A stretch of 21,076 nucleotides of DNA from Promethearchaeota archaeon (GCA_011364975.1 RDOE01000054.1:1-21076), one strand, 5' to 3'; shown: positions 1,098 to 21,058, counted from the first letter of the stretch. Notes: generated by a model not told the origin, from the sequence alone. Numbers and translations are program-made.

Positions 1098-3326
1098 TTA
1101 ACCATTCAAAAGAGATGTTATAATTTTGTCTATTTGATCCATTATTGGTTTTAAAGGGGATTTAAGTGTATTTTGAAGAGCTATCTTTGAAATCTCTGTA
1201 TCCTTTTTATTCAAGAGAGTTTTTATGACCTTTTTTGAGATTTCTTCAGCTTTTTTGCCTAATTCTCCTAACTTTTTATGAGAATCATTGTCTTTATTAA
1301 ATTTTTCAATTGGAAGCTCAAAAGGTAGTTTAAAAATGTGCCTAGAACTTTTCTTTATTCGAACTTGATTTGTAATCATATCAGCATTTAATATAGCTGA
1401 TAAATAATAAGCCTCATCAATATTTTCCGTAGCATAGAAACTTAAATCCCCTGTTACCAGGAAATTTCCTTGGATAACAGCACTATTTAAGATTGAACCA
1501 GAATTATTATATACAACTTTTAAATTTGATAATTGATGTTGGTTAATTAATTTAGACCATCTATTAAGATTATCCATAAGTGAAGTATGCTTAGTGGTGT
1601 CTTTTTTATACCTCAGGTATACCTTATTGACTTTATCATAAAAAAGTTTTGCATGTTCCTTTAATCCATTATAATCATATTCAAGGGTAGTTTTTTTAAG
1701 AGGTAAGAAGATTTCATAATAATCATAAACATAAAATTTTACTAATTCAGTACTTTTGATAGCTTTAAATATATAATCCTTTTCTATAAGCTCTGTTGTA
1801 AAAAATTTCTTATTCCAAGGTTGTTTTGCTCTTTTAAAAATCCGATCATCACACATTATTTGATATAAATCAGTACCTACGTTTTCATATTTAACAAAAA
1901 TAAGACTCCTTGGATTTAAATCAGCACCTTTGTGAAAAAGATTCTTATAATAACTTTCCCTAAGTGGTATTAATTTCTGTAGCTTTTCTTTTTCAATAAT
2001 TTTTTTAACAAAAGTCTTTGACCCCCTCTTTTCAATTGAATAAGGAACATATGTAGTAATAGCATTTTCTATCAAATCTATTGAATCAAAGTATGTAATA
2101 TTTTGTAGATTATTATTATTTAATGAAAACTGATTGACTGGAATTTCTAGATTATCTAGAATGAGATCATCTGAAGATTTTTGAGCAAATAAACAAATAA
2201 AATCAATATTAAAACTCTTTTTTATGGTGGTACTAAATTTCCATATTTTAAGATTTTTAAAACCTTTAAATGATCTAAAACGCGCAGCATGTGAACCGTT
2301 CAATACACCTTCAGTAATTACAAAAAAGATGTAACCATTTACTTTCATGAACTTACTTTTAGCTTGATAAAAAAATAATGAAGCAATTTCAATATTTAAT
2401 ATGTTTTTTGGATAAGGCTTAATCCCTAATTTATCTGATAATAATTTTATATCATTTTGTTGTTTAATGGATTCAATTTCACGTAAAGTATACCAAGGTG
2501 GATTTCCGATTATTAAGTCAAAATTTTTTGGCAATAAGCTATCATTTCCTAACAAAAAGTCATGAATCTTGAAATTATTCTTTAAAAGGGCGAAATTTAA
2601 TCCAGAAAAAAATAATATATTTAATTTTGTTAAATATAGTGAAATAGGATTAAGATCAAAGCCATAGATACCTTTAATCGCTCTCATTTTACTACCATGA
2701 TTGTTATTCGATTCATTAATCTTTTTAATTATTTCTATTAGAAAATTACCTGAACCACAACAAGGATCTAATACTTTATCTCCAAACTTATAGATTGCAT
2801 CTACCATCTTCTTTACTAAAAATGGGGGTGTATAAAACTCTCCAGAAGTATGTCTAATTTGAGGACTTAGAATTCCTTGAAATGCCACATCAAGCTTATA
2901 TTCTGGAGGACAATCATATTTGATAATTTGAGTTTCTATAAGCTCCATCAAGTATTCCGAGAAATCTGATTCTATTTTATCAAGTAAATCGATAAAAGGA
3001 CTAAAGTAGGAGATTTCGTTTTCAAAATTAAACTCAAATTCTTTTTTCATTAACTCATTTACATTAGATAGATACCTTGTTGAAAAATGGAGAATTTTAA
3101 CTTCTTCTCTGTTATTTAAAATATATTTAAGTATAAATGAAATCGAGATGAGAAAGATAATTCCATAGGAGATATATAAGCGTATGTTTGTGTTTTCTTT
3201 CCCATATAATTTAATATAAATGTCTTTCCATTTGTTATAATTTGAATTGTTTTCTATTAATTTTTCATTAAAGTAATCTTCAAGAAAATCAATTTCTTTT
3301 TCAAAATTAATTGAAAAATCTTTCAT
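1098..3326 (-). CDS. N6-adenine DNA methyltransferase, gamma class (Eco57I/type IIG-like MTase plus target-recognition region), no evident nuclease domain
   Basis: Motif X GEFYTP, motif I VLDPCCGSGNF, GFDLNP and motif IV IIGNPPW. C-terminal TRD-like segment KVVYN...EAYYLSAILN. Confidence 0.88.
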   Translation of the reverse strand: MKDFSINFEKEIDFLEDYFNEKLIENNSNYNKWKDIYIKLYGKENTNIRLYISYGIIFLISISFILKYILNNREEVKILHFSTRYLSNVNELMKKEFEFNFENEISYFSPFIDLLDKIESDFSEYLMELIETQIIKYDCPPEYKLDVAFQGILSPQIRHTSGEFYTPPFLVKKMVDAIYKFGDKVLDPCCGSGNFLIEIIKKINESNNNHGSKMRAIKGIYGFDLNPISLYLTKLNILFFSGLNFALLKNNFKIHDFLLGNDSLLPKNFDLIIGNPPWYTLREIESIKQQNDIKLLSDKLGIKPYPKNILNIEIASLFFYQAKSKFMKVNGYIFFVITEGVLNGSHAARFRSFKGFKNLKIWKFSTTIKKSFNIDFICLFAQKSSDDLILDNLEIPVNQFSLNNNNLQNITYFDSIDLIENAITTYVPYSIEKRGSKTFVKKIIEKEKLQKLIPLRESYYKNLFHKGADLNPRSLIFVKYENVGTDLYQIMCDDRIFKRAKQPWNKKFFTTELIEKDYIFKAIKSTELVKFYVYDYYEIFLPLKKTTLEYDYNGLKEHAKLFYDKVNKVYLRYKKDTTKHTSLMDNLNRWSKLINQHQLSNLKVVYNNSGSILNSAVIQGNFLVTGDLSFYATENIDEAYYLSAILNADMITNQVRIKKSSRHIFKLPFELPIEKFNKDNDSHKKLGELGKKAEEISKKVIKTLLNKKDTEISKIALQNTLKSPLKPIMDQIDKIITSLLNG

Positions 3327-10251: not shown

Positions 10252-10947
10252 ATGCCAAACTATTATCCAGATCCTAATAAAAATCCCTATCGAGTGTCTA
10301 GAGAACCTGTACGCCAACCAGTTGCTGAAAAAGTATCATCTACTAATGTAGACTTTGATACTCAGCGAATTTGCCCTTCATGTGGGAAACTTATTAAGAT
10401 CAGTCATAACTTTTGTAAATTTTGTGGAGTAGATCTTAGTTCGATTCCCGCTTTAGGAGAATCTGATAAAACCTTAAAAGCATTATCTGTAGCTGCATTA
10501 ACTGATTTAGATTACGAGGTTAGGAAGGATGCCATAGCCTCATTAGAAGAACTAGGGGGAAAAGAGATTTTAGGAGTATTTACTTATGTATTGTTAAATG
10601 ATCTTCATGAGCTTGTAAGAAAAGAAGCCGCTGATAAGTTAGGGAATATTCATAATCCCATATCGCTAGATATATTAACTAAAGCTTTAAAAGATAAAAG
10701 CCCATTAGTAAGAAAAGCAGCAATCGAAGCTTTAAAGAAAATCAAAAAAATGAATAAACCCCCACAACCAGAACCATTAGCAAAAAAAGAAGAACAACCG
10801 AGAAAGCAAGAAATTAAACAAGAGCAACAAATTGAAGCTGAATCAAAGAATGAAGTTAATGATGATAATGAAGATGATGATAATGAGGATACTGCTCCAC
10901 CCCTTAAAGAAATTGAACCTAGTGATGACGATATGTATAGGTTCTGA
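10252..10947 (+). CDS. Zinc-ribbon + HEAT (PBS-lyase-like) repeat protein with acidic disordered tail
   Basis: CPSCG-x9-CKFCG; three HEAT units (D.DYEVRKDAIASL, DLHELVRKEAADKL, DKSPLVRKAAIEAL); D/E-rich C-terminus. Confidence 0.85.
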   Translation: MPNYYPDPNKNPYRVSREPVRQPVAEKVSSTNVDFDTQRICPSCGKLIKISHNFCKFCGVDLSSIPALGESDKTLKALSVAALTDLDYEVRKDAIASLEELGGKEILGVFTYVLLNDLHELVRKEAADKLGNIHNPISLDILTKALKDKSPLVRKAAIEALKKIKKMNKPPQPEPLAKKEEQPRKQEIKQEQQIEAESKNEVNDDNEDDDNEDTAPPLKEIEPSDDDMYRF

Positions 10948-11005: not shown

Positions 11006-11944
11006 TTAATCTAGATCACTCGGAATTTTAGGTAATTCACGTTTGGAAGCTGGTTTTTTCCCCTCACTATCATTTTTCTCTGATGGAAGCCTAGATTTCA
11101 GTACTTCTACAGCTTCCACAATGCCTTTCTTTTCATCGAAATAGACTCTAAATTTTTTGTTATCTAATTCCATTATTCCCTTTGGGAGGCTTTTAACCTC
11201 TTCCCAAACAGTGTCTACAATGCTTTCTCCAAAAATTTCAGTGACTTTAGAAACTGCACCATATAGGCTATATCCCAATATTAAGTTTTGCCTTTCATAC
11301 CCTTTAGGAACTTCCATAATGAGTATTTTTTCCTTAATTTTTTCTTTCTCTTCTCGTGAAAGATCAGGTGAGCTTTTTACTGACGTAGATGAACTCAATC
11401 TTTTTTGTTTTTGCGCGCTAGATTTTTGCGTTTTCACGGGATGACTAACAGCAAATGAGGAGATTATAATATCGTTATTATTATCTTCAAAACCAGGAGA
11501 ATAGTAATCTTCTTCTATTTGACTTAAATCTTCTTCTTTAGAAAGTCGTTCTACTTCTTTCATTCTTTCGCGTTCAATATTACGTATATAACGCATATCT
11601 GGAAGTCGCTCTTCTACTTCCATAGATTCAAGCTTAAACGCATTTAAGAATTCTTGAAGCTCATCTCCTTGATCAATTGAAACTATTTTACATCTATGAT
11701 ATCTTGAATCTTGGGTAAGCTCTTTTTGTAATTCTTGAGCAACTCGAGAACTTATGAATCTTTTCCTCACGGGAGATTTAGAGCCCTTCCAAATAAATAT
11801 CCTTCGTAAATCTTCTCTTATAATTATTAAAACTTGCTCTGGATTTAGATGATTTTGAAGTTCTTCTTGCTTAATAGTTAATTGTGTCTTTTCACCTGTA
11901 TTCTCAAGGTCATAAACTAAAAAATCTTCATACACTTTAGACAT
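11006..11944 (-). CDS. One-domain gelsolin-like protein with an extra C-terminal domain (Asgard 1DGelX-like)
   Basis: Residues about 5-105 follow the gelsolin repeat pattern LNPEQVLII...IFIWKGSKSP.RKRFISSRVAQEL...IVSIDQGDELQEFLNAF. An S/K-rich linker and a compact alpha/beta domain follow. Confidence 0.82.
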   Translation of the reverse strand: MSKVYEDFLVYDLENTGEKTQLTIKQEELQNHLNPEQVLIIIREDLRRIFIWKGSKSPVRKRFISSRVAQELQKELTQDSRYHRCKIVSIDQGDELQEFLNAFKLESMEVEERLPDMRYIRNIERERMKEVERLSKEEDLSQIEEDYYSPGFEDNNNDIIISSFAVSHPVKTQKSSAQKQKRLSSSTSVKSSPDLSREEKEKIKEKILIMEVPKGYERQNLILGYSLYGAVSKVTEIFGESIVDTVWEEVKSLPKGIMELDNKKFRVYFDEKKGIVEAVEVLKSRLPSEKNDSEGKKPASKRELPKIPSDLD

Positions 11945-12128: not shown

Positions 12129-12845
12129 TTATCTAGTGTCGTGTAACACATTATCTACGGAAAGCACAAAACCTAACAAAATTCTGCGATCAGTTTTATT
12201 ATCTAATATCTTTAATACATACGTATCTTTAAAATCAAAAATTCCACCTAAGAAAATATCCCTCCATTTATCCGCTTTCTCAATCTCTGCTACAACTTCC
12301 CCCGTCACAACGTCATAAATCTTGAAAGAAAATCCCATGAACTTTCCTTGAGCTCTAAACCATTGAGTTCCATCTGGAGCTTCAAGAAAAAAGACTGGTC
12401 GAAATAATGAAAGTATTTTTTTCTTAATCCGTGCTATTAACTCCCCATCAGGGGTCTTTAAATCTTGAGCCGCTCTTGCTGTGATAAGTTTTGCATGGAT
12501 GGTTGCAACAACAGTACCATCAACTTCTTTTAATTCCACTCTCTTTCTTATACTCAATATTATCCGATGCATCTTTCCTATAATCTGATTATTTTCATCA
12601 AGAATGTCGCCAGAACCCCAATCCCAATACTTCTCTTTCAAAATATAATAATTCCGGTTTATATCAAACAATCCCAGGCCTTTAGTAGTAGGGATTGTTG
12701 CTTGAGAACTTGGTGGAGTGGCTGATAAAAGACTTACTTTTTCAGTCTGTTCCAGAATCTCACTTCCACAGTTTTGACAGAACTTCTGAATTGAATCCTT
12801 AAGTTCAGCCCCACAATTTGAACAAAAATTAGGTATCGTATTCAC
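12129..12845 (-). CDS. Zinc-ribbon + LURP-one-related (Tubby-C/scramblase fold) protein A
   Basis: N-terminal FCSNCG-x9-CQNCG; repeated beta-hairpin units (DENNQIIG, DGTVVATI, DGELIARIKKK); VAEIEK...DTYVLKI and a hydrophobic C-terminal helix ILLGFVLSVD. GTG start. Confidence 0.85.
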   Translation of the reverse strand: MNTIPNFCSNCGAELKDSIQKFCQNCGSEILEQTEKVSLLSATPPSSQATIPTTKGLGLFDINRNYYILKEKYWDWGSGDILDENNQIIGKMHRIILSIRKRVELKEVDGTVVATIHAKLITARAAQDLKTPDGELIARIKKKILSLFRPVFFLEAPDGTQWFRAQGKFMGFSFKIYDVVTGEVVAEIEKADKWRDIFLGGIFDFKDTYVLKILDNKTDRRILLGFVLSVDNVLHDTR

Positions 12846-12955
12846 CTACAGTTATGATTTAACTTTAATCAAAACAAGTAAACATCTGCTTATAAATTTA
12901 ATTCATAGATAAGATACTAAAAAAAGAATATAAAAAAATGATTTAGGAGATTTTA

Positions 12956-13489
12956 TTATCTATTCTCTTCTTTTTCATGATGGAGCATTAAAACTATGCC
13001 TAAAACTAACATTGCTGAATCATCATCTAAGTCAGGATTCATTTTCACGCCATAAGTACCTTTTAAAAGGCTTTTAAACAACTTCTTATGAATCTCGGCA
13101 ACTTCCTTACCATCTTTTAAAATCTTAAATTTTAAGGTGAAAATATTCCCCTTCATCGTAAACACTTGGTTTTCATTAGGATCTTCAAACCAATAACTAG
13201 GTTTAATGGCAACTAGTTTTCTTTTGAGCTGTCCAAGATATTGATTTTCATCCTGCTCGCCACCTTTGTAAAATTTGTAGGTAGATCGTAGTGAAATAAC
13301 CTTTTCATGAACGGTTAATACAGGATTTTCATTAAGATCTCTAATTCGGTAAGTATTACCAATTTTTATTAGTTTTCCCCTGAAGCTTCCAATGACTTCT
13401 TTATCTAAGTTCATAATTGTACCTTTATCTGTTAAAGAAATCATTTTTTCTTGAAGAATAAATTCTCTAGTTTTTTCTAATACTGACAT
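12956..13489 (-). CDS. LURP-one-related (Tubby-C/scramblase fold) protein B, no zinc ribbon
   Basis: LQEKMISLTDK start, EKVISLRSTY, MKGNIF..KFKI..DGKEVAEIHKK, TYGV and C-terminal helix MLVLGIVLML; YxjI/LOR-like pattern. Confidence 0.85.
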   Translation of the reverse strand: MSVLEKTREFILQEKMISLTDKGTIMNLDKEVIGSFRGKLIKIGNTYRIRDLNENPVLTVHEKVISLRSTYKFYKGGEQDENQYLGQLKRKLVAIKPSYWFEDPNENQVFTMKGNIFTLKFKILKDGKEVAEIHKKLFKSLLKGTYGVKMNPDLDDDSAMLVLGIVLMLHHEKEENR

Positions 13490-13705
13490 CTTCTACACTT
13501 CCTTATGATTTTTAAACCGTTTCTGGTATAAAATTATTAAATATTTTATTTAACAATTTTAAACTAATAATCAACTTCAGCTATAAAAATGTTTTTACCC
13601 TTTTATGATTCAATTTTATTCTAGATTTTTATAATGAGGACAGAAAGATTAAATAATTTAGAATGTGATTACTAAATTAAACTAAATAAAGCATGGTAAT
13701 TATAA

Positions 13706-14203
13706 ATGACAATTTTATTTACAGCTGAGGGTCATTTTCGAGAAGGATCTATAGGGAAAAAGTGGCAATTTGAAATGGAGTTAGGTAAAATTATACTAAC
13801 CGATACAGAATTAAATTTAATGAAGAAATCTAATATTTCTCTTACAGATTTAGGTACTTCTGTTGATAATTATAAAGAAGGATTTAAAATCCCCTTAGAA
13901 AATATAAAAAAAGCCTATAGTATACAAAATAGAAAAATTTATGTAGTAGTTGTGGAAACGAGAGATAATCATCTTTTCACAATCACTATGGCGGGGCATA
14001 GAAATCCCGCAAGAGTTGAAAGTATTAAGTTAAGTGAATTAATTAATACTGCAATTTTAGCTAATTTAGATGTGTTAAAAGAAACGTCTTCTCCTCAAAC
14101 TCATTTTCAAAAAAGAGATAATATCCTTGTTTGTGAATATTGTGGAGAGAAAAATAATCCTGGAGCTAGCTTTTGTAAGAATTGTGGTAAAAAAATAAAT
14201 TGA
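13706..14203 (+). CDS. PH-fold (GRAM/bPH-like) domain + C-terminal zinc ribbon protein
   Basis: GKIILTDTELNL and FKIPLENIKKA match the GxLxLT..xl.f and ipl..I patterns of GRAM/PH-like domains; then a C-terminal helix and CEYCGEKNNPGASFCKNCG. Confidence 0.65.
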   Translation: MTILFTAEGHFREGSIGKKWQFEMELGKIILTDTELNLMKKSNISLTDLGTSVDNYKEGFKIPLENIKKAYSIQNRKIYVVVVETRDNHLFTITMAGHRNPARVESIKLSELINTAILANLDVLKETSSPQTHFQKRDNILVCEYCGEKNNPGASFCKNCGKKIN

Positions 14204-14221
14204 TCATATTATCTTAATCAA

Positions 14222-15019
14222 TCAACGTCGACGATGTGGAGCCCCAAAAGGTCCAGGAATTCTACCCCTACGATATGGCCTTGGAAAAATTGGACCAGGA
14301 CCTACCATAGGACCCATTCCCCCTGTATCGTGGAGTACATTATCTATACTTAAAACAAAACCCACTAAAATACGCCTATCTGTCTCGTTATCCAAAATTT
14401 TTAAAGCATATGTATCAGCAAAGTCAAATAAACCTCTTAAAAAGACATCTCGCCATCTATCAGCTTTTTCAATCTCAGCTACAAGCTTACGAGTTCCTAC
14501 TTCGTAAACCTTAAACGACCATCCCATGAAGTTTCCTTCCGCCTCATACCATCGATTTCCAAAAGGATCTTCAAGATAAAAAACATGTCGAAAAAAAGTT
14601 AGTATTTTCCTTTTTATGCGAGCAATCATATTTCCTTGAGGATCTTTAAGATCCTGGGCACCGCGCGCTGAGACGATTTTACTATGTATTGTTGCAAGAA
14701 TCGTCCCATCTAATTCCTGGAGCTCTACTCGACGACGAATTGAAAAAATTATTCTATTCATTCTACCAATAAGTTGACCATTCTCATCCATAATATCTCC
14801 AAAACCTAGATCGAACCACCGTTCCTTAATTAAGTAGTAATTGCGATTAATATCAAATAAACCACCTTTAAGTTGACTCGATGAAGATGGTTGAGCGACT
14901 TTTTGTGGTTCATGGGTTAAACTTGAGGTTTTTTGAGCATTGTATAACTCTGTACCACATTCTTCACAATATCGTTGTTCTGGGTTAACTTTTGCTCCAC
15001 AATTTGGACAATCATTCAT
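14222..15019 (-). CDS. Zinc-ribbon + LURP-one-related (Tubby-C/scramblase fold) protein C with Pro/Gly/Arg tail
   Basis: Close paralog of 12129-12845 from GLFDINRNYY to DNVLHDT. Start placed at ATG 15019 (MNDCPNCG) to match paralog A, rather than TTG 15070. Confidence 0.85.
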   Translation of the reverse strand: MNDCPNCGAKVNPEQRYCEECGTELYNAQKTSSLTHEPQKVAQPSSSSQLKGGLFDINRNYYLIKERWFDLGFGDIMDENGQLIGRMNRIIFSIRRRVELQELDGTILATIHSKIVSARGAQDLKDPQGNMIARIKRKILTFFRHVFYLEDPFGNRWYEAEGNFMGWSFKVYEVGTRKLVAEIEKADRWRDVFLRGLFDFADTYALKILDNETDRRILVGFVLSIDNVLHDTGGMGPMVGPGPIFPRPYRRGRIPGPFGAPHRRR

Positions 15020-15198
15020 AATTATAAACTTATTAAACAATAAAATTAGTATTATTCTGTTAAACCACAATAGTCTATATTAACTAATAAATTTACGTTC
15101 TTGTGGTCTGTAATAGTTAGAGTTTAAAGTAATGTTTTAATTAGAGAATGATTTTAACTATTATATATTAGTAAAAAAAGGACTTCTAAACTTGTTTA

Positions 15199-15978: not shown

Positions 15979-17943
15979 TTATAATAATTTAGTCTTCCAT
16001 TCAGTGATACTTTCTCTAATGTGATTAATATCTAATTCACTTAATGTACTTATCTGATTCCTATATTGATTAATTTTACTTCTGATTTTATGTAAAGTGA
16101 CTGAAAATCCTTTCTTTTCTAAAATTAACTCTGAGATTTTGTCTAATTCTTCACTAAATTCTTCTCCCTTCATGTTAGATAATTTTTTTAATAAACTATT
16201 AAAGGCATTATCAATTTCCAAACCTACGGTGTCATCCGATGCAGGGATTATTTTAGATGTAAAGCTAATCTGCTCTTTTAGTTCTTCTGCTAAATTTGGA
16301 ATTATCTCTGAAGGTTCTAAACTCTTTGAAGTGGGCATTTCAACTATTTGTTTCTTAGTTTCGTCCTTTAAACTTTTATTAAGGATATTTTCTTTTATTT
16401 CTGGTTTTTTCGCTCCAGTAAAAGAATTAATAGCTTTTACAGGCTTAAAATCCTTCTGAAATTCGGTTTCTTTAGCCGGAGATGATGTACTAATCGATTT
16501 TGGAGTTTCAAGTAAATCAGTGCTAGCATTATTCCATAAACCCTTAGTTATTGGGTCTAATAATTTAACTAGCGGTAGATAGTTAGTCTCGAATCCAACA
16601 AAATCTTGTAGTGTATTAGAACTAGACTCTTGCATTGTTCCTAAGAGAATATGATGATTATCGTTTATTAGAATAATAATGTTATCATTTAATAATGTTC
16701 GATATTCAAGATTTTTGATTTCTTTATATTTTTTTACTAAACTATTTGTGTGAGCTTCTGAAGAAACAATTTTTACCTTTAGAGTATTAGGTTTCGTTTC
16801 AAAATCCTCAATGTTTAAATGCTCCTCTAATTTTGGAACAACAAGCAACACTTCATTAACAGAATTGGACATTATATTTTTAATAGATTCATTCACTCGT
16901 GATACACTATTAATATTTACTAAATTCTCGAATTGGAGTGTTATTTCTGATGTTATCGCTTTAAAATAATTCTTCATAGCTTTTTCTATAGGGTGGTTTA
17001 AAGCGGTAACAGAATCTACTGAATTTTTAATTATAGCGTCAATGTTCTCCAATATTATCTTTTCAAATTCTTCAAGATCTACTGAAAGACCGTCTTTTTT
17101 ATCTTTCACAATTTCCATAATTTTGTTAACACTATTTTCAAAACCATTAAGCATATTTAGAAGAAGCATTTTAAAGTCATTTCTGAGTTGAAATATTGAG
17201 TTAATTATATTTTTCAAAGATTCTATCGTAGTAGTAAATTCCTTTTCTATTTTGTTGTGCAATTCTCCAATAGAATCTTCCATCATTTTCTCAAATTGAT
17301 CTTGGAACACTTGTTCTATGATATATTTGACTTCACTTTCATACTTTTTCAACTCTAATAATTCAATTTTTTCTATAATTTCCTTCTTGATATTTGTTGT
17401 TAACTTGATTATCATTTTAAAATGAGTTTGAGTTATTGCTTTTATCGATTGATTGAGTTCATTAAATATATTCGTTATCAGGTTAAGATTTTCCATACCA
17501 TATACAATATCATCTATCTCCTGTTTTTGAATCAAAACATCTTCTTGATAATCATTTCTTACTTCATGAGTTTTGTCAAATAATGAATCCAACTCAATGA
17601 TTGTATTTTCACGTAATGCTTTTTCTAAAGAATTTTTCAATAACAACCGTAATTGTTTCTTAATATTATCTAAATTGGCATTAATATTCGCATAATATTT
17701 AGTAATTGGATTAAAAGGTGGTATTGCTAAATATTGAGATAAACCTCCCTTCTTCTGGGGTGGAATTGGAACTAAAAGTCCAATTTCAACCAATTCGTCT
17801 AGGGCTGCTTTAAAATTGTCTGGAGATATATTTGACACTATTGAATATAATTCGAATGATGATAATGGTGTACGCCCTAAACTTTTAAGATACATTTTTA
17901 TAGCGAATTCTGAAAGCTGAATTTGGTTTAGTAATTCCTCCAT
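15979..17943 (-). CDS. TrmB-like wHTH + long coiled coil + PLD-like (TrmB effector) domain + C-terminal helical domain
   Basis: N-terminal LSEFAIKMYL...LDELVEIGLL...YLAIPP; heptad-rich helical region about aa 70-345; IKNIMSNSVNEVLLVVP...VKIVSS...INDNHHILLG...LWNNA resembles the TrmB/PLD-like domain but has no HKD. Confidence 0.65.
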   Translation of the reverse strand: MEELLNQIQLSEFAIKMYLKSLGRTPLSSFELYSIVSNISPDNFKAALDELVEIGLLVPIPPQKKGGLSQYLAIPPFNPITKYYANINANLDNIKKQLRLLLKNSLEKALRENTIIELDSLFDKTHEVRNDYQEDVLIQKQEIDDIVYGMENLNLITNIFNELNQSIKAITQTHFKMIIKLTTNIKKEIIEKIELLELKKYESEVKYIIEQVFQDQFEKMMEDSIGELHNKIEKEFTTTIESLKNIINSIFQLRNDFKMLLLNMLNGFENSVNKIMEIVKDKKDGLSVDLEEFEKIILENIDAIIKNSVDSVTALNHPIEKAMKNYFKAITSEITLQFENLVNINSVSRVNESIKNIMSNSVNEVLLVVPKLEEHLNIEDFETKPNTLKVKIVSSEAHTNSLVKKYKEIKNLEYRTLLNDNIIILINDNHHILLGTMQESSSNTLQDFVGFETNYLPLVKLLDPITKGLWNNASTDLLETPKSISTSSPAKETEFQKDFKPVKAINSFTGAKKPEIKENILNKSLKDETKKQIVEMPTSKSLEPSEIIPNLAEELKEQISFTSKIIPASDDTVGLEIDNAFNSLLKKLSNMKGEEFSEELDKISELILEKKGFSVTLHKIRSKINQYRNQISTLSELDINHIRESITEWKTKLL

Positions 17944-18098
17944 TTTATTCCACCGTGCAAATCTTTAATGATTACTGATTATTCATTTTAAATAATAAGT
18001 AATATAAGTATTTATTTTTTAAATTTTGTATGGTAAAAATATTTAAAGAAAAATAATCTTTAACATAATTATTAGCTGGAGATGTTATAAATCTTAAT

Positions 18099-19496
18099 AT
18101 GAGCCATTTTGAAGATGTGTTTTTTTATTTAGATCTTGCTAAAGATATTTTAAAAAAAAAGGAGTTAAGTAAAGCTATAGAATATTATATCTCTGAAAAA
18201 AATAAGAGTAATATTCAAGGACATTATGGATTTTTACTTTTTCAACAACAAGGGAATCCTATCTTCATCACTGACAAAAAAGACTCGAATATTATCATTA
18301 ACGCAATAGAGGAAAATTGGAAAACTCGTCCGAAGAAGGAATCATTTTTTGAAAATGGATTATTCTATATTTTTTCTTATATTGCTGAAACAGTAAGAAA
18401 AAAGTCACAATTTAATAGAATTATTATTATTACAGACACTCCTAGTGATTTATCTGAAGATTATACGGAAGCGTTATTTGGTTTAGTCTCAAAAATCAAA
18501 ACATTTCCAACTTTTATTGATATTGTAAGAATATCCGAGGGACAACGTTTTTTTACTGATGATGTTAAACTAAATATTTTAGCAAATGACACAAAAGGAG
18601 GAATTTTTTATGTTTCAGATAAAAAAGAATTCTTACCCCTTATAAAAAAATTAGTCAAATCAAAACAATTGATTAGTACCTTCGAGGAGAAACCTGATAA
18701 GATTAAGATAAATAAAGAGGATTACTTCTTTTATTCTCACCTTGCTAAAAAACTAAAACCAATTGGATCAGACGAAGTCGGATTAAGATGTTCTTTATGT
18801 AAAGAAGAGATTTGCCCTGTGTGTATGGAAATAGGAGACAAACCGGTCATTTGCGAAGAATGTAAAACTCCCTTTCATAATTGTTGTATTACAAATTATA
18901 CAATACAATATAATATTGGAATTCCCCACATATTTCGTTGTCCTAAATGTGATATTTTACTACAAATTGAACAAGATGAAATCGTTCAACCATTTAATAG
19001 TGAAGAGCAATCAGTTTATGATTATCTTGAGAAAGAAAGAACCCCAAAATCAATCCCAGTAAGAGATACAGAAAAAATAGAAATAAAGCAGCAAATTAGT
19101 AATGAAACTAGTTTAGATGTTAAAACACCATCTAGAACCACAGAAAATGGCACAAATCTCCAAAAGCCTAACACCATACGAATTGGTGGTTTCTTTGGGA
19201 AAGTTTATACAGTCAGAAAAGACGGAAATAGGTTAATATATGAAAAAACAGATAAATCCTTCACATTTAATGATAATTTAGAAGAAAAGAATGATTTACC
19301 TAAAAATGGCCAACGAATTGTTCAAGAAAATCAAAATGTACCTCAGATATGGAAACCATCGCAGAATAAAAATGAACAAGTGGAAGATAGAGATAAATAC
19401 CTTTTTATTATATGCCCAGAATGTGGTAAACAGGTTAAAAATCAAATTCAAGGTATCAATAAATGTCCAAAATGTGGGTTTAAATTTTCGAATTAA
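18099..19496 (+). CDS. vWA-like domain + Cys/His-rich RING/PHD-like finger + C-terminal zinc ribbon (paralog 1)
   Basis: vWA strands FFYLD, YGFLLF, RIIIITD, FIDIVRI and LANDTKGGIFYV; finger CSLC..CPVC..CEEC..HNCC..H..CPKC; C-terminal CPEC...CPKCG. Confidence 0.75.
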   Translation: MSHFEDVFFYLDLAKDILKKKELSKAIEYYISEKNKSNIQGHYGFLLFQQQGNPIFITDKKDSNIIINAIEENWKTRPKKESFFENGLFYIFSYIAETVRKKSQFNRIIIITDTPSDLSEDYTEALFGLVSKIKTFPTFIDIVRISEGQRFFTDDVKLNILANDTKGGIFYVSDKKEFLPLIKKLVKSKQLISTFEEKPDKIKINKEDYFFYSHLAKKLKPIGSDEVGLRCSLCKEEICPVCMEIGDKPVICEECKTPFHNCCITNYTIQYNIGIPHIFRCPKCDILLQIEQDEIVQPFNSEEQSVYDYLEKERTPKSIPVRDTEKIEIKQQISNETSLDVKTPSRTTENGTNLQKPNTIRIGGFFGKVYTVRKDGNRLIYEKTDKSFTFNDNLEEKNDLPKNGQRIVQENQNVPQIWKPSQNKNEQVEDRDKYLFIICPECGKQVKNQIQGINKCPKCGFKFSN

Positions 19497-19636
19497 ACTA
19501 TTTGTATTCATAGTCTTTTTGATAAAAATAATGTAAGAACAGAAACATCAATAAAAATAAATAAAAATTCTCTTATTATTTTATATAAATTAACTTAACT
19601 TGCATTAAGCGATTTTAATTTTATTTCGGTGTAGGG

Positions 19637-21058
19637 ATGTTTCGAAGATCAACAATTAATTCAGAAGAGTTTATTTTTTATCTTGATTTGGAAGGGGAAT
19701 TTATAAAAAAGAAGAATATAGTTAAAAGTCTACATAATTTCGTTAAAGAAAAAGAAAGATTTAATAGCTCAACAAGTTATGGAGTAGTACTTTTCCAAGC
19801 TGATGATAATCCTATCACTATCTATAATGAGAAAGATGCTGAGGAAATTAGTAACATTGTTAATGAAAAATGGGATACTAGAGAAAAGACCGAGAGTTAT
19901 TTTGAAAATGGGTTATTTGAGGTCTTATCATATATTTTTCTAAAAAGCAGAGAAGCAAGAAAAAATTACAGAGTAATTGTGATTTCAGATACACCTAGTA
20001 ACTTATCAGAAGAATATCATAATGCCTTGTATGATTTACTTTTAAAGGCAAGATATTTTAACACGTTCATTGATATCGTACGACTGGGAGATGATAAATT
20101 CTATGAAGATGATGTTAAACTTAAAGTTATTACAAGTGAAACTCATGGTGGGGTTTTTTATTGTAATGAGCCTCGTTTATTTCAAGATATTTTAATATCG
20201 TTAGTACAAAATAAATCTGAATTCACAGTAATCCAACCTGATGAACAAAACCCGATACTTAAAGAGGATAAAATATTTTACGAGAAATTAGCAGTTGATT
20301 TAATATCATTAGATTCCAATGATGAAGAAGTTTGTGATATCTGTGAAAGAGAAATGTGTCCCATCTGTGAAGCTTACTCTGATGAAGTGCATAAATGTTT
20401 TAATTGTAATGCTAAATACCATGCATGTTGTGCAGCAGAATATTCAATCGCTAATCCTGTCGGATTTAAACATCTATTCAGATGCATTCAATGTGACACT
20501 TTACTAAAATTAGAGGAGGATTTTGTTGAACTTATCTATAAAGAAGAACATGATCAAGATATTGAAGAAATTCAAGAAGAGAAGCCCATACGTGAAATTA
20601 TTAATGAAGACACTTCCCTTGAAGATTTAGAGGAGGAAGAGGAGGAAGAGGAGGAATTCGAGGAATTAAGTAAACAAGAAATTCCTAAGATTGAACCAGA
20701 GGAAATGCAATTAGAAGAAATAAAGATAGATTTACCTAATCTTCGGAAACCACCTAGTTTGAAACTATCATCTCCGACTCCAACACAACAAGAAGAACTC
20801 CTCGAGAAGAAAGTTAAGATAGGGGGATATTTTGGTCAAGAAATAACAGTTAAAACGAAAACTGGTAATAATGTTTCTAGTTTGAATACTCATGAAGCCC
20901 TTATATCCTTAGCAGGCAGCACTAATCAAGTAAAAGAAAAAATCTCTATAACATCTTTAAAACCACCAAAAAAAACAACTATAAAATTATGTAAAATCTG
21001 TGGTACCACTTTAAGTAATATTAACAAATGTCCAATATGTGGTGCTAAGGTGGATTAA
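19637..21058 (+). CDS. vWA-like domain + Cys/His-rich RING/PHD-like finger + acidic linker + C-terminal zinc ribbon (paralog 2)
   Basis: Colinear paralog of 18099-19496 (FENGLF, DTPS.LSE.Y, FIDIVR, DDVKL); finger CDIC..CPIC..CFNC..HACC..H..CIQC; C-terminal CKIC...CPICG. Confidence 0.75.
   Translation: MFRRSTINSEEFIFYLDLEGEFIKKKNIVKSLHNFVKEKERFNSSTSYGVVLFQADDNPITIYNEKDAEEISNIVNEKWDTREKTESYFENGLFEVLSYIFLKSREARKNYRVIVISDTPSNLSEEYHNALYDLLLKARYFNTFIDIVRLGDDKFYEDDVKLKVITSETHGGVFYCNEPRLFQDILISLVQNKSEFTVIQPDEQNPILKEDKIFYEKLAVDLISLDSNDEEVCDICEREMCPICEAYSDEVHKCFNCNAKYHACCAAEYSIANPVGFKHLFRCIQCDTLLKLEEDFVELIYKEEHDQDIEEIQEEKPIREIINEDTSLEDLEEEEEEEEEFEELSKQEIPKIEPEEMQLEEIKIDLPNLRKPPSLKLSSPTPTQQEELLEKKVKIGGYFGQEITVKTKTGNNVSSLNTHEALISLAGSTNQVKEKISITSLKPPKKTTIKLCKICGTTLSNINKCPICGAKVD
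20630..20656 (+). repeat. Perfect tandem repeat (GAGGAGGAA)x3 encoding poly-Glu
   Basis: Read directly from the sequence; in frame, encoding E9. Confidence 0.9.

Follow-up and report, generated by a model that had tools for sequence, protein, structure and literature searches.

The window analysed here, a stretch of 21,076 nucleotides from Promethearchaeota archaeon (GCA_011364975.1 RDOE01000054.1:1-21076), contains two adjacent genes, P1 and P2, which we propose, with a probability of about 40%, to encode a putative ubiquitin-ligase-like adaptor pair. The genes are lineage-specific tandem paralogs of a vWA-RING family found only in a Loki-type Asgard class, and their host is a Loki-type Asgard archaeon. 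The features of the locus are listed below.

15979..17943, minus strand: conserved divergent neighbour of 654 aa, Promethearchaeota-specific, probably with a TrmB-like winged helix at its N terminus and a long helical region after it
17944..18098, no strand: AT-rich divergent intergenic region of 155 bp between the TrmB-like gene and P1, as read from the sequence; presumed shared promoter region
18099..19496, plus strand: gene P1 (P0001), 465 aa, from ORF and translation; vWA, RING-type finger, linker with beta-hairpin, zinc ribbon
18099..18683, plus strand: P1 vWA domain, aa 1-195, with remodelled MIDAS face D12-L-A-K-D16, E85-N86-G87 and D113-T-P-S116 (model and structural matches)
18783..18971, plus strand: P1 cross-brace C4HC3 RING-type finger, aa 229-291, with invariant ligands (finger-only model, pLDDT 82)
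19176..19247, plus strand: P1 linker beta-hairpin, aa 360-383, IRIGGFFG..., conserved; predicted strands 358-362, 368-375 and 378-383, block pLDDT 80-86
19410..19493, plus strand: P1 C-terminal C4 zinc ribbon, aa 438-465; C439, C442, C456 and C459 invariant in 40 orthologs
19637..21058, plus strand: gene P2 (P0002), 473 aa, from the ORF; P1 paralog of the same layout with an acidic first linker
20330..20515, plus strand: P2 RING-type finger, aa 232-293; ligands C233, C236, C254, C257, H262, C265, C283 and C286
20813..20866, plus strand: P2 hairpin motif, aa 393-410, VKIGGYFG..., aligning to the P1 hairpin; G396, G397, F399 and G400 invariant
20987..21055, plus strand: P2 C-terminal C4 zinc ribbon, aa 451-473; C452, C455, C465 and C468 invariant in 43 orthologs

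Conservation and origin of the pair

P1 and P2 align along their full length (BLASTP, 33% identity, E 3e-79), in agreement with the two adjacent co-oriented paralogs that had been described from the sequence alone (hereafter the sequence-only reading). Homologs number 373 for P1, with an Asgard label on every source name that gives an organism, and 426 for P2. The genes are not a chance occurrence, since they are conserved in 66 of the 68 sampled genomes of the same family; among the 55 genomes that have a P1-type match, 49 carry the pair side by side on the same strand. Mean column identity reaches 67% among P1 orthologs and 51% among P2 orthologs, and no family member was found outside one class in the 226 other genomes of the phylum sample.

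A 16-row clade (SH-aLRT 96) comprises the P1 and P2 clades and one further row; the genes of the sister family, single-copy in 6 of 7 genomes, branch outside it. The tree thus indicates that P1 and P2 are a recent local duplication within one Lokiarchaeial family. With this origin within a single archaeal family, the copies do not correspond to p44 and p34, the TFIIH pair with which the sequence-only reading had compared them.

The vWA domain and its MIDAS face

The AlphaFold2 model of P1 has a mean pLDDT of 80.8 and a pTM of 0.66, and its blocks within residues 1-190 average 89-98. In VIA-align comparisons, the best solved match of the modelled vWA domain was TFIIH p44 (Z 20.0, rmsd 2.5 A over 177 residues); p44 and Ssl1 together spanned Z 20.0-18.3, and ArnB (8s05_A, 18.2), Rpn10 (17.9) and integrin I domains (about 17.5) were also matched. 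The predicted fold is therefore the Rossmann-like alpha/beta vWA fold (p44, Rpn10, p34 and integrin I domains match it with Z of 20.0-17 across some 175-185 residues), which bears out the vWA-like N-terminal domain recognised earlier. Foldseek likewise placed p44, Ssl1 and p34/Tfb4 on top over about 350 columns (E 4.9e-11), and P2 gave a weak Pfam VWA match (E 0.0084).

By sequence, narrow P1-only or P2-only ortholog profiles found no vWA relative in the PDB, and the wider family profile matched Rpn10/PSMD4 best (E 4.5e-6), followed by p44 (1.2e-4) and BABAM1 (1.9e-4); the Rpn10 and p44 signal thus comes from the wider family, as the narrow profiles match no PDB vWA.

An intact MIDAS (D-x-S-x-S ... 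T ... D) is absent from both proteins, which read D-L-A-K-D in P0001 and D-L-E-G-E in P0002. The degenerate motifs noted previously (YLDLAKD and YLDLEGE) are indeed present, and only two of the five MIDAS positions are retained, the first Asp (D12) and the last (D113). Conservation on this face is nevertheless strong: among 62 family rows, D113 occurs in 62, G87 in 59 and D12 in 40, and 40 P1 orthologs share E85, N86, G87, D113, T114, P115 and S116 without exception. In P1 orthologs, position 14 is T, A or S and position 16 is D, E or N. In P2 orthologs, the third position of the motif is mostly hydrophobic. Thus, the classical metal site is replaced by other strongly conserved acidic and polar residues.

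The RING-type finger

The Cys/His finger that had been seen in the sequence has the spacing C-x2-C-x17-C-x2-C-x4-H-x2-C-x17-C-x2-C, a C4HC3 pattern. The P1 ligands C231, C234, C252, C255, H260, C281 and C284 are invariant across the 62 family rows, and position 263 is Cys in 56 of them and His in the other 6. The sequence-only reading had missed an additional C/C/C/H set in P1, with C239, C242 and C262 in 40/40 rows and H277 in 38/40. P2 has a corresponding extra set (C241/C244/C264/H279), which, like its ligands, is invariant or nearly so in 43 orthologs.

The finger-only P1 model contains a helix (H65-75) equivalent to the long central helix of RINGs. In a structure search independent of Foldseek, it matched FANCL (Z 7.2 and 7.0), Deltex (6.5), Listerin (6.5), APC11 (6.0) and, ranked below these, the p44 C-terminal RING (5.5). 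All 50 matches listed read as RING, U-box or RBR-type domains, including one titled "PHD finger", which is PHF7 in complex with UBE2D2. The model thus predicts a RING-type cross-brace fold for the finger, the kind of fold (RING or PHD) on which the sequence-only reading had staked its interpretation. Its suggestion that the segment CEECKTPFHNCC resembles the Ssl1 RING fared less well, as the likeness amounts to the generic C-x2-C-x4-H-x2-C core of PHD and RING-variant fingers.

By sequence, the finger profile matched NSE1 best (E 3.3e-4) and also PHD fingers (MTF2, KMT2D, KDM5D), RAF C1, Slx1 and Listerin, with p44 absent among the best 60 of 161 sequences matched. More family members match Prok-RING_1 than any other Pfam model (22/62 at E <= 0.01, best 1.9e-6), so that it is also the model hitting the finger most often; PHD matched 16/62. 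No curated RING cut-off was reached in Pfam, P0001 scoring 15 bits against the Prok-RING_1 cut-off of 29.1 and P0002 having no RING match.

Several positions correspond to what we take, from the RING literature, to be E2-contact sites (before ligand 2, in the central helix and the Pro after ligand 7). Position 233, before the second Cys, is hydrophobic (I/L/V/F/M) and position 267, four after ligand 6, is aromatic (Y/W/H/F), each in 57 of 62 family rows, and P282, after ligand 7, is found in 40/40 P1 orthologs, with I or V there in 33/43 P2 orthologs. The basic "linchpin" after the last Cys is absent: 36/40 P1 rows have D at position 285, and 38/43 P2 rows have D at position 287. F279, an aromatic residue two before ligand 7 as in PHD fingers, occurs in 56/62 rows.

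Linker, hairpin and zinc ribbon

A disordered linker had been proposed between the finger and the terminal ribbon. This holds for two parts of the P1 linker, residues 323-354 and 389-431 (AlphaFold2 pLDDT < 50), but not for the hairpin predicted between them at aa 360-383. A folded, conserved hairpin in the middle of the supposedly disordered linker had thus been overlooked; its F366 and G367 are invariant and G363, G364 and F365 nearly invariant in 40 orthologs. In P2, the first linker is acidic, with 33 D/E in 88 residues.

The terminal zinc ribbon was read correctly from the start, the four Cys being invariant in the orthologs of both proteins. Pfam gave a weak L37ae-type ribbon match for P1 and a weak rubredoxin-like match for P2, and among 62 family members Zn_ribbon_3 matched 13 and Zn_Ribbon_1 matched 10.

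Gene neighbourhood and ubiquitin genes

The TrmB-like gene lies directly upstream of and divergent from the pair in 13/13 related loci (L007-L019) and is 42% identical to the copy in another genus. The 654-aa protein has no Pfam match; in its Atlas clusters, 25-33% of members carry PF01978 TrmB. Its helical region is probably a coiled coil, judging from the residues. The neighbourhood of a single-copy homolog differs between genomes: in one, it adjoins a Ras-type GTPase and an actin gene, and in another, SDR and ABC genes are found there.

As the sequence-only reading had expected of an Asgard host, the genome encodes ubiquitin machinery. Genes for a ThiF-type E1, a UQ_con E2 and a JAB peptidase form one operon on contig C128, and a second E2 gene lies on C132. 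The operon is on a contig other than that of P1/P2, so there is no gene linkage.

Proposed function and alternative explanations

We suggest that P1 and P2 could act as a RING-type E3 ligase or an E3-like adaptor. The vWA domain would dock a partner or substrate through the conserved MIDAS-face residues, the RING finger would recruit the ubiquitin-charged E2 of the host E1-E2-JAB system, and the tethered hairpin and zinc ribbon may provide a second, movable contact. P1 and P2 probably work together, also with the TrmB-like neighbour, as their conserved adjacency suggests. In favour of the E3-like reading we count fold and layout, the E2-contact positions, the Prok-RING_1 matches, the host E1, E2 and JAB genes, selection, and the homologous vWA-2xRING proteins with intact MIDAS that the genome also encodes. 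Against it stand the Pfam RING scores below cut-off, the non-basic "linchpin" position, the PHD-type ligand spacing with PHD matches in 16/62 members, the location of the E1-E2-JAB operon on another contig, the failure of narrow P1 and P2 profiles to find a vWA relative in the PDB, and a neighbour resembling a DNA-binding regulator, which fits a role in transcription or repair as well.

The structural matches to p44 and p34 raise the question of whether the pair is instead a TFIIH-core-like scaffold, that is, a non-catalytic p44/p34-like heterodimer with RING and ribbon as protein-protein glue, which would bind and regulate either the archaeal XPD-type helicase or a transcription factor, for example the TrmB-like neighbour. 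We consider this unlikely. It draws on the leading Foldseek and VIA-align positions of p44, Ssl1 and p34, on the p44 RING among the finger matches, on an Atlas feature search returning eukaryotic TF2H2 clusters (0.88-0.85) and Tfb4 (0.81), which are leads only, and on an XPD-like gene in the genome and a probably DNA-binding neighbour; in addition, the available text of PMC4094531 and PMC5737387 describes a p34 MIDAS reduced to its first Asp and contacts of the p44 RING with p34. However, because the duplication took place inside one family, a resemblance of the pair to p44/p34 is a matter of convergence. The domain order also differs, Pfam matches to Ssl1, Tfb4 and C1_4 are lacking, Tfb2 was not found, XPD is on another contig, the family is confined to one class, and integrin I domains and ArnB have Z values just 2-2.5 under that of p44. 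A non-ligase adaptor of the ubiquitin or proteasome system like Rpn10 or BABAM1/MERIT40, with the vWA domain anchoring to the proteasome, Cdc48 or a JAB deubiquitinase and the zinc modules binding ubiquitin or clients, would agree with the best hit of the wider profile (BABAM1 being at the level of p44), with the Rpn10 vWA match and with the JAB peptidase gene. The layout of Rpn10, in which a long flexible linker leads from the vWA domain to a small terminal module, points the same way. We still find this reading improbable, as Pfam detects no UIM or other known ubiquitin-binding motif, the subfamily profiles have no Rpn10 match, and the conserved RING with its E2-type surface residues would be left without explanation.

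The identical C4HC3 spacing, F279, the Pfam PHD matches and the MTF2, KMT2D and KDM5D sequence hits would also suit a PHD-like reader or regulator, whose peptide-binding finger would act with the TrmB-like protein, its conserved neighbour, in gene regulation or chromatin binding and without ubiquitin chemistry. The long central RING helix of the finger model makes this quite improbable, as does the structure search, in which 49 of the 50 matches listed were RING, U-box or RBR-type domains and the remaining one was the PHF7-UBE2D2 complex. It is very improbable that the proteins are an ArnB- or Sec23/24-like signalling or coat module, active in phosphorylation-dependent regulation or membrane traffic. 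This idea is encouraged by the ArnB match and by the single-copy homolog beside a Ras-type GTPase and an actin gene, as well as by binding of the ArnA zinc ribbon to ArnB, a pair likened to the Sec23/24 core in the available text of PMC12852372. The GTPase/actin neighbourhood is not conserved, however, and the P1 model shows neither the split beta-sandwich nor the C-terminal helical bundle by which the same available text defines that core.

Comparison with known systems

The layouts of several known families do not fit. For the Rpn10 type, vWA + UIM, there is no UIM match (Pfam E <= 1) despite the vWA Z of 17.9. The p44/Ssl1 architecture (PF04056 + PF07975) does not correspond to one C4HC3 finger, a linker and a C4 ribbon with no C1_4. 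Of the ArnB/Sec23-24 core, which the accessible part of PMC12852372 defines by a beta-sandwich with the vWA inserted and a helical domain after it, neither element appears in the P1 model.

The likeness to TFIIH p44 is real in fold and layout; to that extent the earlier p44/p34 reading was right, these being the best solved look-alikes (Foldseek E 4.9e-11; Z 20.0-18.3), but P1/P2 have no Pfam membership and are not orthologous to p44 and p34. Both pairs are intracellular proteins with a vWA domain followed by zinc modules. Against the TFIIH option of the sequence-only reading, neither P0001 nor P0002 matches Ssl1 at E <= 1, Tfb4 or C1_4 in Pfam. A genome-wide Ssl1 search finds only genes on C123 and C192, not on the P1/P2 contig, and Tfb4 (PF03850) matches 1/62 family members, P0123, with 26.1 bits (cut-off 27). 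Tfb2/p52 was not found at E <= 0.1 in the genome, which is 99% complete, and the XPD-type DEAD_2 gene is on C180, another contig. The p44 RING is C4C4, whereas the P1/P2 finger is C4HC3 and structurally nearer to FANCL, Listerin and APC11. The order is vWA, RING, ribbon in both P1 and P2, unlike the vWA, central C4 finger and RING of p44. The accessible part of PMC5737387 places a cross-brace RING at the end of p44 and a C4 zinc domain at the end of p34. In that of PMC4094531, p34 likewise retains the first MIDAS Asp alone, and the two sources together have the p44 RING binding the p34 vWA in an E2-like manner and the p34 C4 domain binding the p44 RING.

Among the ubiquitin-system adaptors, Rpn10/PSMD4 and BABAM1 (MERIT40) resemble P1/P2 in having a vWA domain followed by a flexible tail; P1/P2 differ in the presence of a RING, the lack of a UIM and the absence of subfamily-profile matches. 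Structurally, the finger is matched best by RING-variant (C4HC3) E3 domains (FANCL, Listerin, Slx1, NSE1, APC11/Rbx; Z 7.2-5.4). Its additional Cys/His set, placed in the loop that joins ligand pairs 1 and 2, may resemble the third zinc site found in Rbx1 and APC11. P1/P2 differ from these ligases by the fused vWA, the lack of significant sequence-family membership and the lack of a basic residue after the last Cys. Prok-RING_1 (PF14446), a prokaryotic RING family reportedly described by Burroughs, Iyer and Aravind in 2011, resembles the P1/P2 finger as a group of prokaryotic RING fingers tied to ubiquitin-like systems; P0001 scores under its cut-off, P0002 has no match, and their genes are unlinked to E1 or E2. 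Plants possess vWA-RING E3 ligases, RGLG1/2, and the domain order and accessory domains of WAV3 and RGLG1/2 differ from those of P1/P2. Compared by description only, both share with P1/P2 a vWA and a RING in one chain, the E3 activity being that of the eukaryotic proteins. The available text of PMC12852372 presents the WAV3 family as plant and fungal vWA-RING E3 ligases.

The nearest comparison is provided by the vWA-2xRING genes of the same genome, P0122 (C123) and P0123 (C192), picked by the Pfam Ssl1 model with 46.5 and 33.8 bits (cut-off 27). They are homologous to P1/P2 over the vWA and first finger (BLASTP E 1e-7 and 7e-7), share the FRCPxC finger end and have the same phyletic range (68/68 genomes of family f1, 7/7 of f2 and 1/1 of f4). 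In contrast to P1/P2, they are MIDAS-intact, keeping D-x-S-R-S-M and the D..PNRL motif common to p44, and carry a second C-terminal finger instead of linker and ribbon; their RING helices are of the canonical C-x-x-x-W type. MIDAS-intact family members share the motif D.SRxM...D..PNRL with p44. The p44 likeness of P1/P2 is one of shared building blocks and possibly of distant common ancestry of the wider family. As a long shot, the Lokiarchaeial vWA-RING family, comprising P1/P2 and the MIDAS-intact members, might be the surviving archaeal sister group of eukaryotic p44, p34 and perhaps Rpn10, within which P1/P2 would have independently re-created a p44/p34-like heteromer in which a RING E3 activity would be tied to a partner, either a DNA-binding (TrmB-like) protein or a helicase. 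If so, the family would be a living model of the TFIIH structural core arising from a ubiquitin-ligase adaptor.

Conservation and arrangement of the gene pair

The two adjacent co-oriented paralogs noticed in the sequence-only reading are borne out as complete ORFs, P0001 and P0002 (with their orthologs, P1 and P2), whose full-length alignment shows 33% identity (E 3e-79). The contig of 21,076 bases (G+C ~0.30), which the window covers entirely, ends 18 bases beyond P0002 and belongs to a 99% complete genome of 3.74 Mb. The pair and its divergent neighbour are located as follows.

18099-19496, +, P0001, ORF of 465 aa
19637-21058, +, P0002, ORF of 473 aa
15979-17943, -, gene of a 654-aa protein without a Pfam match

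Homologs numbered 373 for P0001 and 426 for P0002, and all those with an organism in the source name were Asgard-labelled (Lokiarchaeota/Promethearchaeota, with some Thor-, Hod-, Hermod- and Odin-labelled bins). Of the 23 DNA runs listed, 20, from 7 studies, contained all or part of the window stretch; they were mostly metagenomes of sediment, estuary, mangrove and soil, and no RNA data sets containing it were listed. Literature searches found no description of an Asgard vWA + RING (or von Willebrand + RING finger) family and no paper describing a Lokiarchaeial one; the matches for Lokiarchaeota with both vWA and ubiquitin were unrelated, judged by title, and none of the TFIIH/Ssl1 matches listed mentioned Asgard archaea. 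The pair belongs to a real, conserved Lokiarchaeial family that is so far undescribed.

When 300 further genomes from the phylum were searched with P0001, matches came from its own taxonomic family (66 of 68 genomes), from the sister family (6 of 7) and, weakly, from the single genome of another, third family in that class; none were found in the other 27 families (224 genomes), which is no proof of absence. P1-type genes, defined by E <= 7e-108, occurred in 55 genomes including the source genome, and in 49 of them a P2-type gene lies immediately downstream on the same strand. The two matches are on separate contigs in five genomes (G077, G153, G261, G291 and G117), three of these cases being at contig ends, and are 3.8 kb apart in G279. 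The sister family carries a single vWA-RING copy per genome. No P1-type match was found in several genera (g4 and part of g6), and P1 may be dispensable. In one genome (G135:C118:14756-16461), the P1-type match is a short piece only, corresponding to query residues 251-400 and containing an in-frame TAA, and the adjoining P2-type gene is intact.

Directly upstream of the pair and divergent from it, a gene for a protein of 635-674 aa was present at all 13 related loci (L007-L019), its product (654 aa in the window) showing 42% identity between two genera. Promethearchaeota clusters of this protein carry the TrmB winged-helix family in 25-33% of members, and it probably consists of a winged helix of the TrmB type and, after this, a long helical region. 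The genes downstream of the pair are variable, and the neighbourhood in the sister family is wholly different. In one sister-family genome (L020:8245-11829; G213:C1), the single-copy gene and a Ras-family GTPase gene are divergently oriented, and an actin-family gene comes after the latter; this context is not conserved, with SDR and ABC transporter genes found in another genome of that family.

The window also holds a cluster of genes of the eukaryote-signature type (496-1041, -; 11006-11944, -; 12129-15070). They encode a small GTPase of the Ras/Roc family, a protein with gelsolin repeats and three LURP-one/scramblase/tubby-like (LOR) proteins, of which two carry zinc ribbons at the N-terminus. 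The small GTPase gene adjoins a gene (1098-3326, -) for a 742-aa N6-adenine DNA methylase that weakly matches an MmeI-type methyltransferase.

Modules of the protein

The structure of P0001 was modelled with AlphaFold2 from a 62-row alignment of the wider vWA-RING family (mean pLDDT 80.8, pTM 0.66; P0001 numbering is used below).

Residues 1-190, vWA domain, alpha/beta fold (block pLDDT 89-98)
Residues 206-215, helix before the finger
Residues 229-291, finger (block pLDDT 90-97)
Residues 323-354 and 389-431, disordered stretches
Residues 358-383, beta-hairpin
Residues 436-465, small C-terminal zinc ribbon

The N-terminal vWA-like domain and the terminal zinc ribbon previously read from the sequence are thus both reproduced, and the disordered linker ahead of the ribbon is partly so: a confidently folded beta-hairpin, overlooked earlier, separates the two disordered stretches. 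Small zinc ribbons are also carried by unrelated proteins of the window, namely, a HEAT-repeat protein (10252-10947, +) and a 165-aa protein of unknown type (13706-14203, +), and further ones are fused to LOR proteins and to the vWA-RING pair; a terminal zinc ribbon seems to be an add-on module used repeatedly in the source genome.

The MIDAS, the metal site of vWA domains, had been described as degenerate, and its motif is indeed broken (D-L-A-K-D in P0001, D-L-E-G-E in P0002), but its face is conserved: D113 occurs in all 62 rows of the family alignment and G87 in 59, and E85, N86, G87, D113, T114, P115 and S116 are unchanged throughout 40 P1 orthologs. Since these face residues persist, the site is better read as remodelled than as dead. 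Pfam searches gave almost nothing, with Prok-RING_1 for P0001 (15 bits) and VWA for P0002 (16.8 bits) both under the cut-off. A Pfam scan of 11 longer or odd family members revealed only zinc ribbons and vWA and, in one case each, a patatin-vWA fusion and an LRR protein, and provided no functional hint. The family relative P0228 (519 aa) has a patatin-like phospholipase domain N-terminal to a MIDAS-less vWA and lacks the finger.

The ligands of the finger are arranged as C4HC3 and are spaced as in PHD and RING-variant fingers. Seven ligands (C231, C234, C252, C255, H260, C281 and C284) are invariant over the 62 rows, and position 263 is Cys in 56 rows and His in the other 6, which substantiates the proposed Cys/His finger. 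P1 has an additional set, C239, C242 and C262 in 40/40 rows and H277 in 38/40, with C241, C244, C264 and H279 at the matching positions of P2. We infer a putative third zinc site, similar to the one in Rbx1 and APC11.

The finger modelled alone (pLDDT 82) was compared, without Foldseek, with 48,161 chains. Its matches were FANCL (Z 7.2 and 7.0), Deltex (6.5) and Listerin (6.5 and 6.4), and further APC11 (6.0) and Nse1 (5.8); the C-terminal RINGs of TFIIH gave 5.5 (p44) and 5.2 (Ssl1). All 50 rows listed were interpreted as RING, U-box or RBR-type, in agreement with the suggested RING/PHD-like cross-brace fold. Foldseek with the finger alone returned nothing at E <= 0.001, and its weak rows (E 0.03-0.2) were for the most part RINGs. 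The best sequence matches of the finger profile were NSE1, PHD fingers, RAF C1, Slx1 and Listerin, and p44 did not appear among the 60 listed (161 sequences matched in all). Given these structure and profile matches, the earlier comparison of CEECKTPFHNCC with the Ssl1 RING reflects a generic C-x2-C-x4-H-x2-C core and no specific likeness.

Relationship to TFIIH and other vWA proteins

In Foldseek searches with the full P0001 model, TFIIH p44 ranked at the top (E 4.9e-11), followed by Ssl1 and p34/Tfb4 and then by Rpn10 (2e-7) and the vWA of the BRCA1-A complex. VIA-align of the vWA domain gave Z scores of 20.0-18.9 for p44, 18.6-17.7 for Ssl1, 18.2 for ArnB, 17.9 for Rpn10, 17.6-17.2 for p34 and ~17.5 for integrin I domains. 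For the modelled domain, p44 is therefore the nearest match, yet it stands just 2-2.5 Z units above ordinary vWA domains. Against PDB sequences, a profile of the wide family matched Rpn10 (4.5e-6), p44 (1.2e-4) and a bacterial vWA (1.8e-4), and lower down BABAM1 (1.9e-4) and Tfb4 (8.8e-4). Profiles of P1 or P2 orthologs only gave no vWA matches, returning ribbon, PHD and C1 noise, and so the vWA sequence signal stems from the wider family. An Atlas feature search placed P0001's own clusters at 0.98-0.96, Ssl1-annotated Promethearchaeota clusters at 0.93, eukaryotic TF2H2 clusters at 0.88-0.85 and Tfb4 at 0.81, values that serve as leads only. Passages of PMC4094531 describe a p34 vWA with a disrupted MIDAS, parts of PMC5737387 cover the p34 vWA, p44 RING and C4 contacts, and ArnAB, Sec23/24 and WAV3 are treated in sections of PMC12852372.

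A search of the source genome with the Pfam Ssl1 model did not match the pair but matched two other genes, P0122 and P0123.

Contig C123, L003:1465-2640, +, P0122 (392 aa)
Contig C192, L004:820-2010, -, P0123 (397 aa)

Their Ssl1 scores are 46.5 and 33.8 bits (cut-off 27), and VWA_2 scores higher. Both have an intact D-x-S-R-S-M motif and two C4HC3 fingers each, with canonical C-x-x-x-W helices, and their homology to P0001/P0002 spans vWA and finger (E 1e-7 and 7e-7). The best PDB sequence matches of P0123 were a bacterial BatA-like vWA (2.1e-5), Rpn10 (4.7e-5) and p44 (7.1e-5). Within the phylum sample of 301 genomes, the Ssl1 model gave matches in the Loki-type class only, and it gave none in 14 control genomes (E <= 1e-5); across the sample, searches with P0122 and with the Ssl1 model showed the same range as those with P0001.

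Does the likeness to TFIIH extend to the pair as such, P1 and P2 being counterparts of p44 and p34? A maximum likelihood tree was built from 70 rows (residues 1-300 to 1-320; chosen representatives of at least 300 aa plus six locus translations, fragments excluded) and rooted on four MIDAS-intact rows. The P1 and P2 rows each form a clade (99 and 98, respectively), and these two make up, with one further row, a 16-row clade (SH-aLRT 96); the single-copy genes of the sister family fall outside it. Therefore, the P1/P2 duplication is local and recent and, as placed by this sequence tree, cannot be the eukaryotic p44/p34 split. The earlier TFIIH reading accordingly holds for layout and fold but fails for orthology of the pair.

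Possible functions

The genome encodes ubiquitin enzymes: an operon on contig C128 (L006:149-3467) contains E1 (ThiF), E2 (UQ_con) and a JAB peptidase, and a second, stand-alone E2 lies on C132. Behind the operon lies an open-ended ORF (203 aa or more) without a Pfam match. An XPD-type gene is located on C180, and Tfb2 was not found in the 99% complete genome.

In the family alignment, position 233 is hydrophobic (I/L/V/F/M) and position 267 aromatic (Y/W/H/F), each in 57 of 62 rows, and position 282 is P in all 40 P1 orthologs and I or V in 33 of 43 P2 orthologs; these three are presumably the E2-contact sites of canonical RINGs. With such residues conserved, the finger would serve as a RING E3 module. 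Against this reading stand the absence of a basic residue after the last Cys, the PHD-like ligand spacing, scores of P0001 and P0002 under every RING profile cut-off and the lack of linkage between the P1/P2 genes and the ubiquitin operon. This mixed evidence leads us to assign a probability of approximately 0.4 to P1/P2 being an E3-like adaptor. The predicted complex of full-length P1 and P2 from ortholog alignments scored 0.00 against a mark of 0.32 and is neutral on binding. Prokaryotic RING families were reportedly defined in a 2011 paper by Burroughs et al.

A TFIIH-like scaffold, suggested by the p44-like fold and layout and weakened by the local duplication, appears unlikely. The same grade applies to an adaptor of the Rpn10/BABAM1 type, in which the wide-family profile matches to both proteins are set against the silence of the P1 and P2 profiles. 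A PHD-like regulator would fit the ligand spacing and the PHD fingers among the profile matches, and the RING, U-box and RBR-type structural matches of the finger count against it; we consider it improbable. The least probable is an ArnB/Sec23-like module: ArnB does align well with the vWA domain, but a Sec23/24- or ArnB-type reading was rejected because the P0001 model has neither the beta-sandwich nor the helical domain.

Comparison with known systems

Asgard archaea possess a eukaryote-like ubiquitin system; to our knowledge, few of their E3 ligases are known, and we know of no substrates. The vWA-RING proteins are a conserved, class-restricted group of RING proteins with a docking domain of their own, which makes them concrete candidates for study with the organism's own E1 and E2. 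With respect to TFIIH, the results count against the P1/P2 pair as a direct ancestor of its core. The MIDAS-intact relatives P0122 and P0123 share the D.SRxM...D..PNRL motif with human p44, and among the prokaryotic families seen in the present analysis, only the vWA-RING family has the TFIIH p44/p34 core as its closest match of solved structure; through this likeness, the origin of that core becomes a testable question.
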